This document shows positions 26,790 through 27,743 of a stretch of 32,000 nt of DNA, in pieces; within the stretch, counting starts at the first letter, position 1; every line of letters begins with the position of its first letter. Position numbers and translations under genes: made by a program. This DNA is from Sinorhizobium meliloti (GTDB lineage: Bacteria; Pseudomonadota; Alphaproteobacteria; Rhizobiales; Rhizobiaceae): the NCBI RefSeq assembly GCF_017876815.1, contig NZ_JAGIOS010000001.1:600001-632000 (forward strand), given 5' to 3'. The notes under the pieces are model-generated. The model ran no database searches, was not told the origin of the DNA, and was given only the letters and a program-made list of their open reading frames with translations.

Positions 26790-27035
26790 GGTGGAAATAC
26801 GAATGTCGATGTGAACGTTGACTTATTGCACCCATCCTGAGACAAAGCGGCCACCGAGCTTGCCGGCGGGGTCAAGTCAAGCTCAACACCGACGAAAACC
26901 CCGAGCTGGCGGCGCAGTATGGAGAACGCATCGATCCCAGCGCTTTCCATGTTCAAGGGTGGGAAGCCGTCTACGTCGGAGGCGGCTCACTCCCCTCCTG
27001 GATTTCGAAAATGGTTCGAACACAAAGGAACCACG
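26790..27035 (+). pseudogene. Decayed upstream copy (copy 0) of the thioredoxin repeat unit
   Basis: The DNA aligns to 27540-27743, for example attgcacccatcctgagacaaagcggccaccgagcttgccggcgg against attgaacccatcctcgaacaagtcgccaccgagcttgctggcaagg. It carries indels, including a 4-nt deletion in ggtcaagtcaagctcaac, that break the frame. Confidence 0.65.
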
Positions 27036-27743
27036 ATGGACACCGTTCGCAATGAGCACCCCACGGCTATTGTGAAAGTCGATACTTCCAATTTCGCGGA
27101 AGAAGTTATGAAGCCGGCCGAACCGGTCATCGCCATCTTCTCGTTCGAAGGGTGCGGGCACTGCGCGATAATTGCACCTTTCCTCGAAGAAATCGCCACC
27201 GCGCTTGCTGGCAAGGTCAAGATCGTCAAGGTCAACGACACTGAAAACCCCGAGCTCGCGACGCAGTATGGCGTATTGGGCTTCCCAACGCTTGCCATGT
27301 TCAAGGGTGGTGAAGTCGCCGACATTTTCCTCGGAGCCAAACCACCTAATATTGAGACGAAACTCCGCTCCTGGATTTCCAAGACGGTTCAAACAACGAA
27401 GATGAACACCACCATTCCCAATGAGCACCCCACGGCTATTGTGAAAGGCGATATTTCCAATTTCCCGGAAGAAGTTCTGAAGTCGGCCGAACCGGTCATC
27501 GTCCACTTCTGGGAAGAATGGTGCCCGCCGTTCGAGCTGATTGAACCCATCCTCGAACAAGTCGCCACCGAGCTTGCTGGCAAGGTCAAGGTCGTCAAGC
27601 TCAACATCGGGGAAAACCGCGATTTCGCGACGCAGTATGGCGTACACGGCTTCCCAATGCTTGCCATGTTCAAGGGTGGTGAAGTCGCCGACATCTACGT
27701 CGGAGGCTCACTCGGCTCCTGGATTTCGCACGCGACGGCTTGA
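27036..27743 (+). CDS. Two-domain (tandem) thioredoxin-fold protein with non-canonical active sites
   Basis: ATG 27036 follows AAGGAA. There are two homologous modules 366 bp apart. Module 1 has EGCGHC and module 2 has WCPPF. Both keep the cis-Pro context GFP(T/M)LAMFKGGEVAD. Confidence 0.8.
   Translation: MDTVRNEHPTAIVKVDTSNFAEEVMKPAEPVIAIFSFEGCGHCAIIAPFLEEIATALAGKVKIVKVNDTENPELATQYGVLGFPTLAMFKGGEVADIFLGAKPPNIETKLRSWISKTVQTTKMNTTIPNEHPTAIVKGDISNFPEEVLKSAEPVIVHFWEEWCPPFELIEPILEQVATELAGKVKVVKLNIGENRDFATQYGVHGFPMLAMFKGGEVADIYVGGSLGSWISHATA

Follow-up and report, generated by a model that had tools for sequence, protein, structure and literature searches.

Thioredoxin is among the most conserved proteins known. 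Mutants of the Escherichia coli protein have defined the effects of single changes at its active site: P34H raises both the redox potential and the isomerase activity, and in C35 mutants substrates become trapped in mixed disulfides. Two thioredoxin folds also occur together in the cytoplasmic PDO proteins of archaea and thermophiles, conserved proteins of about 225 amino acids that have a CxxC-type site in each fold and derive from an ancient duplication whose units are packed into one rigid sheet. Here we analyzed a 32,000-nucleotide stretch of Sinorhizobium meliloti DNA (assembly GCF_017876815.1, contig NZ_JAGIOS010000001.1, positions 600,001 to 632,000; the whole stretch is called the window below, and positions are counted from its first letter), which contains a gene for a two-module thioredoxin (Trx). 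An array of thioredoxin folds is known in kind, but the evolutionary regime and the context of this one are unusual, and its modules are under diversifying selection on their docking face. In public records the gene is annotated as 'thiol reductase thioredoxin'. A survey of phiLM21-like S. meliloti prophages listed 'thiol reductase thioredoxin' and 'necrosis-inducing protein' as cargo and left them unanalyzed (PMC12429752); this table entry was the sole mention, and no study of the gene was found, in literature searches that covered thioredoxin of Sinorhizobium prophages, NPP1 in this genus, roles of thioredoxin in anti-phage defence and its positive selection in rhizobia.

The ratio of nonsynonymous to synonymous substitution rates (dN/dS, or omega) between the two modules of the window gene was 2.23 by the NG86 method, and the ratio between the window allele and five others was 1.13-1.78. 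By the same method, housekeeping rhizobial trxA gave 0.02-0.11, the neighbouring gene of the NPP1 family 0.61-0.86, and the neighbouring small open reading frame (ORF) 0.47. Pairwise maximum-likelihood estimates (GY94) for eight allele pairs were 1.2-2.24, with omega = 1 rejected only in the two deepest comparisons involving the window (p 0.0097 and 0.0058). Codon positions 1 and 2 differed more than position 3 in all 15 of 15 allele pairs. When a codon model was fitted to 15 modules on a neighbour-joining tree, omega over all 112 codons was 1.37 (likelihood-ratio test, p 0.015), so that the strong purifying selection seen in TrxA orthologues (0.02-0.11) was absent from the modules. The 25 codons of the partner face, defined as E. 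coli positions 26-37, 59-61, 72-77 and 90-94, gave 2.42 (p 8e-4), and the other 87 codons gave 1.08, which was not significant. The initial annotation of this DNA, made from the sequence alone, had proposed a non-housekeeping thioredoxin with functionally diverged modules, and this proposal is upheld by dN/dS values of 2.2 between modules and 1.1-2.2 between alleles against 0.02-0.11 in trxA.

In parsimony counts, dN/dS was 2.33 for partner-face codons and 0.97 for all others; when only the strict hydrophobic patch plus CxxC was taken as the face, the values were 2.19 and 1.14. The observed replacement density was reached by none of 20000 random sets of 25 codons. Replacements were overdispersed among codons (mean 3.1, variance 7.8), with 20 invariant codons where 5 were expected, and synonymous changes were Poisson-like (mean 0.73, variance 0.75). 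The hottest codon, at E. coli position 73, had accumulated 14 replacements and no silent change; positions 29, 26, 30, 61, 74, 33 and 60 came next. On the partner face, replacements were gathered in the active-site loop and at positions 26, 29-33, 60-61, 73-74, which precede the cis-Pro, and 91. The 20 invariant codons corresponded to the fold core, and the 29 full-length protein variants contained only in-frame indels and no stops. Uniform decay does not predict a conserved core and an intact frame together with replacements in excess on a single face. The motifs are likewise not random decay, since the variability lies on the partner-binding face of a fold whose core is invariant.

Two other sources of such a substitution pattern were considered and rejected. 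A 254-residue ORF runs antisense to the gene (Table 1) and was examined as a possible constraint on third positions. However, antisense frames contained at least one to three stops in every allele, codon position 2 was as variable as position 1, and the ORF of the window was interrupted in every other allele; it is most likely spurious. Mutagenesis of the type caused by diversity-generating retroelements was rejected because the frequency of variable sites was equal at all four bases (0.33-0.38), with no adenine bias. No reverse-transcriptase domain was found among the island ORFs scanned.

The active sites of the two modules have departed from the canonical motif in different ways. Module 1 has EGCGHC, in which CGHC is encoded by TGC GGG CAC TGC at 27153-27164, and module 2 has EWCPPF, in which CPPF is encoded by TGC CCG CCG TTC at 27522-27533 and the resolving cysteine is lost; both motifs read as initially annotated. 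Canonical WCGPC with both cysteines was found in neither module. The buried acid Asp26 (E. coli numbering), which assists catalysis, is replaced by Ile in module 1 and by His in module 2, and seven different residues occupied this position among 17 aligned modules. Trp31 has become Gly in module 1. The loop of cis-Pro76 is kept, as FPT in module 1 and FPM in module 2, and the proline was present in 16 of the 17 modules.

The family comprises more than 80 protein variants. Across alleles, the module 1 motif was CGHC in P0001-3, CPPC in P0004-6, WMPC in P0007, CGPC in P0112 and CAPC in P0130, and the module 2 motif was CPPF in P0001-3, CPPC in P0004, CSPS in P0005, FSPS in P0006 and CRPS in P0007. 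The module 1/module 2 pairs outside the lineage of the window were thus CPPC/CPPC, CPPC/CSPS, CPPC/FSPS and WMPC/CRPS, and CPPC was probably the ancestral state of both module types. CGHC/CPPF was stable only in one lineage of three alleles that are 85-89% identical (P0001-P0003), so the combination of CGHC with a monothiol CPPF, as described in the initial annotation, did not extend to other alleles and close relatives. The suggested resemblance to protein disulfide isomerase (PDI), whose motif is WCGHC, is also weak. CGHC occurred in module 1 only and was preceded by Gly, and sister alleles had CPPC, CGPC or CAPC at this site; with both Trp31 and Asp26 replaced, the analogy comes down to the dipeptide.

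Among single-domain proteins, the nearest relatives of the modules shared about 60% identity with them and were rhizobial TrxA proteins of the canonical WCGPC type. Searches of species-representative genomes returned only housekeeping trxA, again at about 60%, which suggests that the tandem family is accessory DNA particular to certain strains. Synonymous distances placed all modules nearer to the S. medicae trxA (dS 0.11-0.33) than to its S. meliloti counterpart (dS 0.34-0.60), and the two housekeeping genes differed from each other by dS 0.27 and dN 0.012. These synonymous distances indicate that the modules descend from trxA of the S. medicae lineage after the species split; they later spread horizontally. 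The modules had dN of 0.17-0.28, and protein change in them has been at least 15 times faster than in the parent gene.

The features of the locus are collected in Table 1. Both modules scored far above the gathering cut-off of the PF00085 profile (23.5 bits), module 1 with 80.7 bits (E 8.7e-23) and module 2 with 76.2 bits (E 2.3e-21). DNA at 27041-27336 aligned with that at 27410-27705 at 84% identity without gaps and with a spacing of 369; in a codon alignment the modules shared 82.7% of their nucleotides, and their protein identity was 62% (tblastn E 1e-38). Two homologous modules fused in frame were therefore recovered as initially described, and the proposed 366-bp period held as the ATG-to-ATG distance, the 3-nt excess in the repeat spacing being due to an indel directly after the start codon. 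Tandem Repeats Finder reported no repeat at the locus, as can be expected of an array that falls short of two full copies and contains mismatches and indels. The same 235-residue product was found on 29 contigs, and the four loci that were fetched from independent assemblies all had the remnant plus two-module layout. This reproducibility of copy number makes assembly collapse or expansion unlikely. RefSeq WP_ entries often annotate module 2 alone (112-113 residues) and GenBank submitters annotate the 234-235-residue fusion; the long product is favoured because the fused junction has no Shine-Dalgarno sequence.

Table 1. Positions of the thioredoxin array and associated features in the window (aa, amino acids)
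Feature	Position	Strand	Basis or remark
tRNA-Thr (GGT)	22426..22500	+	ARAGORN, Rfam; left edge of the low-GC prophage/island
Decayed third Trx module	26822..27035	+	Repeat families, alignment, tblastn
Antisense ORF, 254 aa	26883-27647	-	Overlaps the Trx gene
Fused two-module Trx ORF, 235 aa	27036-27743	+	Two PF00085 matches
Trx module 1, 122 aa	27036..27401	+	PF00085; alignment to E. coli and rhizobial TrxA
Trx module 2, 113 aa plus stop	27402..27743	+	PF00085; alignment to TrxA; junction comparison
Small secreted protein, 138 aa, 4 Cys	27979..28395	+	Signal-like N-terminus; middle gene of the cassette
NPP1/NLP (necrosis-inducing-protein family)	29059..29790	+	PF05630, E 1.7e-49; signal peptide; 4 Cys; last gene of the cassette

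Upstream of the gene lies the remnant of a third module, related to the intact ones through repeat families at 67-93% identity and by tblastn (E 3e-7). It comprises only the C-terminal two-thirds of a module, without an active site, and the alignment showed indels of +1, -4, +1 and -7 nt plus a TGA in frame. At the end of the remnant are the linker and a Shine-Dalgarno sequence, AAGGAA (27025-27030), that serves module 1. A frameshifted upstream copy had been annotated from 26790, and its existence and its frameshift stand; its start does not, as homology begins at about 26822 and the sequence at 26690-26820 is unrelated to the modules. Tandem amplification likewise holds, at about 2.6 rather than 2.7 copies because the remnant is shorter.

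Junctions between modules across the arrays were 22, 28, 29, 30 or 31 nt long. The 30-nt junction of unfused arrays has an ATGA stop/start overlap with a Shine-Dalgarno sequence ahead of it. The junction in the window, at 22 nt, is 8 nt shorter and fuses the modules in frame without an internal Shine-Dalgarno sequence. The fusion is thus secondary, caused by an 8-bp deletion that removed the stop/start overlap together with the internal ribosome-binding site. Since unfused arrays have coupled stops and starts, the ancestral array was one of translationally coupled single-domain genes that became fused later; the 31-nt junction of locus L016 is a second, independent fusion. Related loci contained one to three modules per array: a separate module followed by a fused pair in L014, and a fused pair followed by a separate module in L016 and L017, which are on pSymA near fixABC. 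Type-1 and type-2 modules formed separate clades across alleles, and the duplication is older than the split of the alleles. The tandem duplication, initially taken to be recent, is therefore not recent relative to the family.

The gene is cargo of a prophage inserted at tRNA-Thr. GC content is about 64% ahead of this tRNA gene and about 55% past it; in loci L007-L010 and L013 the same chromosomal flank (a murA-type EPSP_synthase gene and hisD) is followed by the cassette, and in related loci phage tail, holin, terminase and portal genes lie downstream of it. The first four ORFs past the tRNA (22892-26003) had no family match in Pfam, PHROGs or PADLOC. One of them, a 214-residue ORF at 25359-26003 (+) without a family match, has an internal near-repeat, AASAGWESKEMEEL / AASVGWERKEMEEL. 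No DNA similar to the Trx locus was found in the INPHARED phage collection. Scans for sigma-70 promoters and terminators gave nothing above chance. Extra copies of rpoN, which encodes sigma-54, were present in Trx cargo regions (L014 3358-4884 and L100 8249-9772), and one rpoN-bearing relative was a 50-kb S. medicae 'plasmid', pMl3, which resembles a phage genome. These copies prompted a scan for sigma-54/NifA control, which was rejected: no -24/-12 match was found upstream of the Trx gene, and matches in the window were at the level of chance.

In different prophage backgrounds the same gene order recurred, namely one or more Trx modules, often a small secreted protein with four cysteines, and then NPP1. 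NPP1 was downstream of Trx in six of eight contexts, and when IMG/VR was searched with NPP1 as the seed, Trx modules were beside it in 7 of 7 loci with visible flanks. The neighbours upstream of the cassette varied and included genes for an S8 peptidase and Evf, IS66, an Abi_C gene and rpoN; the S8 peptidase (L001 3322-4272) and the Evf-family protein (L006 3119-3787) are of the kind that interacts with eukaryotes. The small protein had no Pfam or PHROG match and was 92-94% identical in prophage contigs L102, L104, L110-L114 and L117, although both of its neighbours vary. NPP1 alleles were highly divergent (dN about 0.3, dN/dS 0.6-0.86), and the heptapeptide motif was GSRYNWE in the window and GHRSGWQ in L001. 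The initial annotation had noted cysteine-containing secreted proteins beside a Trx protein that lacks a signal peptide, and both statements agree with our results, the latter because no hydrophobic signal sequence was found at the N-terminus of the two-module protein, which is cytoplasmic as judged by its sequence.

In L011, whose island has a remnant and one Trx module, a gene for a 356-residue AhpC-TSA/Redoxin protein (7950-9020) directly follows NPP1; it is a second redox gene associated with the NLP. So far, S. meliloti and S. medicae, both symbionts of Medicago, are the only species in which the Trx-module family has been seen. Accessory Trx arrays are also present on symbiosis plasmids of another legume symbiont: plasmid pRlX2 of a clover isolate of Rhizobium johnstonii (L099 907-10437) has nifD-nifK-nifE-nifN followed by a canonical trxA, an IS630 element, another trxA identical to the first, and a Trx-like gene that is divergent and encodes EGCGSC.

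AlphaFold2 predicted two Trx folds separated by a disordered linker of low confidence (residues 121-133, <50), with a mean pLDDT of 71; the inter-domain geometry is unreliable and was left uninterpreted. In Foldseek searches, single-domain matches to thioredoxins had TM scores of about 0.9. The best two-domain match, a fragment of ERp72 with domains a0-a (3idv), had a root-mean-square deviation of 12 A, so the domain arrangement is either not shared with ERp72 or not predictable. TXNDC5 (8eky) was the best sequence match among solved structures. PHROG 22 (thioredoxin domain) was matched over two stretches with E 9.4e-16, which reflects the fold only. Neither the Trx protein nor six neighbouring ORFs matched a PADLOC defence model.

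These observations are best explained by modules that keep the Trx fold, were diversified from trxA and act in an arms race by binding partners or trapping thiols, a function to which we give about an even chance. The modules of this prophage cargo were copied recently from chromosomal trxA of the S. medicae lineage and amplified in tandem, and an 8-bp deletion fused them in the lineage of the window. The fold is retained and the role of a general reductase probably lost; with the equivalent of Asp26 gone from both modules, the Trp from module 1 and the resolving cysteine from module 2, neither should still be one. The product would be a partner-specific binder, cytoplasmic or released by lysis, in which module 1 (CGHC) may still perform dithiol-disulfide exchange and module 2 (CPPF) could only bind non-covalently or hold a partner as a mixed disulfide. 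An arms race would follow if the partner itself were changing.

The most plausible partners would be cysteine-rich molecules from the plant side, for example the NCR peptides that enter bacteroids. Such partners are favoured because NLPs are directed at plants and the family is so far confined to S. meliloti and S. medicae, because related Trx paralogues accompany nifN in R. johnstonii and occur close to fixABC on pSymA, and because there is precedent for a thioredoxin acting on NCRs inside the symbiont: plant Trx s1 does so and is reduced by bacterial TrxB (PMC7230169, PMC6315971). As a bolder and rather unlikely extension, a prophage may have captured and multiplied trxA of its host, with Trx now serving as a hypervariable binding scaffold whose active-site loops are diversified in the manner of immune-receptor loops. 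The arrays would then be strain-specific traps for fast-evolving, cysteine-rich host molecules such as Medicago NCR peptides, would move together with the NLP gene and would tune symbiotic compatibility.

Several observations weigh against an arms race with a plant-side partner. The arrays of L014 and L016 have no NPP1 nearby. Between the window and L001/L110, Trx was 89% identical but NPP1 only about 57%, and between the window and L102 the values were 56% and 84%; the alleles of the two genes have thus been reshuffled, and the Trx face does not simply track the neighbouring NLP. Confinement to Medicago symbionts could merely reflect the host range of the phages. As to the selection itself, most of the pairwise GY94 tests were not significant, omega over the whole gene exceeded 1 only modestly (p 0.015), and the p-values for the partner face are optimistic, as its codons were chosen from textbook knowledge after the entropy profile had been seen. 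The tree analysis used a fixed neighbour-joining topology and ignored recombination between modules. Finally, decayed copies lie beside intact ones, both upstream of the window gene and as frameshifted modules in L103 and L109, and some copies are being lost.

A different role, close to the idea in the initial annotation and in our judgement unlikely, is that of a redox helper for the secreted proteins of the cassette. CGHC would act as an isomerase or oxidant and CPPF as a holdase or trap for the small protein and the NLP, each with four cysteines; these clients would either be kept export-competent in the cytoplasm or be acted on after phage lysis. The tight linkage of Trx, the small protein and NPP1, which includes all seven evaluable loci found from NPP1, fits this role, as do the AhpC-TSA/Redoxin gene after NPP1 in L011 and the position of the cassette next to lysis genes such as that for holin. 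The P34H change raises the isomerase activity of E. coli Trx, and the structure of that mutant (2fd3) was among the Foldseek matches. However, the presumed clients are exported by Sec, and their oxidation would normally fall to the Dsb system of the periplasm, whereas the Trx protein lacks a signal peptide. Alleles of Trx and NPP1 did not co-vary, and a small protein that is 92-94% conserved cannot drive the diversification of Trx. Moreover, CGHC/CPPF was not kept across the family, and arrays without NPP1 exist.

Birth-and-death decay, in which a captured trxA was duplicated, the copies drifted under relaxed selection and the odd active sites are random damage, is distinctly improbable as the overall explanation. 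It would account for the frameshifted remnant and for the frameshifted or partial modules in L103, L109 and L011, and for the loss of Asp26, Trp31, Cys35 and, in some alleles, Cys32 or the cis-Pro in varying combinations. An omega of about 1 at codons away from the surface and the frequent annotation of module 2 alone in RefSeq point the same way. Nevertheless, under neutral drift omega should be about 1 throughout, and 2.4 was observed on the partner face; drift also predicts equal change at the three codon positions, and positions 1 and 2 exceeded position 3 in every pair. Neither the overdispersed replacements with their 20 invariant codons beside Poisson-like synonymous changes nor 29 distinct full-length sequences with several in-frame indels and no stop or frameshift are expected of drifting copies. 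In addition, alleles of the window lineage were each present on many contigs (29, 13, 35 and 78).

A role directed at phages starts from the use of TrxA as a processivity factor by T7-type DNA polymerases and its requirement for the assembly of filamentous phages, neither of which needs redox activity. Mimics of TrxA would serve or sabotage phage proteins that recruit it, as decoys against superinfection in an arms race between phages, and the place of the gene in prophage cargo by tail and lysis genes, its presence in IMG/VR viral contigs, the PHROG 22 match, the loss of catalytic residues and the hypervariable positions 33, 73-74 and 91 on the active-site face, which also contacts T7 gp5, all accord with this. 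We consider it very unlikely, because no PADLOC defence family was matched, the gene is not part of a replication module, copies outside prophages occur on pSymA near fixABC and in Rhizobium beside nifN, the gene is tightly linked to that for a plant-directed NLP rather than to phage-defence genes, and the literature search found no Trx decoy in defence.

If the proposed arms race is real, the array would be a rare natural case of a housekeeping redox enzyme that was recruited into a molecular conflict. A cassette that travels on prophages and symbiosis plasmids with an NLP gene would then be a testable candidate for a factor that modulates the legume symbiosis in a strain-specific way, for example in the handling of NCR peptides, or alternatively a candidate for conflict between phages. 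In either case, the frequent calling of module 2 alone in RefSeq is an annotation problem to be fixed.

Among described systems, TrxA of the Rhizobiaceae (SMc02761 of S. meliloti and its S. medicae orthologue) resembles the modules in fold, length, cis-Pro loop and most core residues and is their direct ancestor. In contrast to TrxA, the modules have GCGHC or WCPPF instead of WCGPC, have lost Asp26, and are tandem, fused and borne by a prophage. Members of the eukaryotic PDI family (ERp72 a0-a, TXNDC5 and P5) likewise have consecutive Trx-fold domains in one chain, and CGHC is shared by one module. However, the two-module Trx has no signal peptide, endoplasmic reticulum retention signal or b/b' domains, its second module is monothiol, and it is an independent and recent copy of a bacterial trxA. 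The E. coli mutants correspond to the two modules separately, P34H having the same CGHC dipeptide change as module 1, and C35S and C35A lacking the resolving cysteine as module 2 does. These are laboratory point mutants of an otherwise wild-type Trx, whereas the modules have changed at many other residues of the active-site face. The PDO proteins, none of which was among the top Foldseek matches, are likewise cytoplasmic and of similar size, but the two-module Trx has a linker predicted to be flexible and arose by a duplication that is recent by comparison. For the setting of the gene, the closest parallel is with prophage 'moron' toxin cassettes such as those of the Shiga-toxin paradigm, in which eukaryote-directed genes also lie at the prophage end by holin and tail genes. 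The cassette described here differs from that paradigm in that its host is a mutualist and in that it includes a diversifying Trx array.

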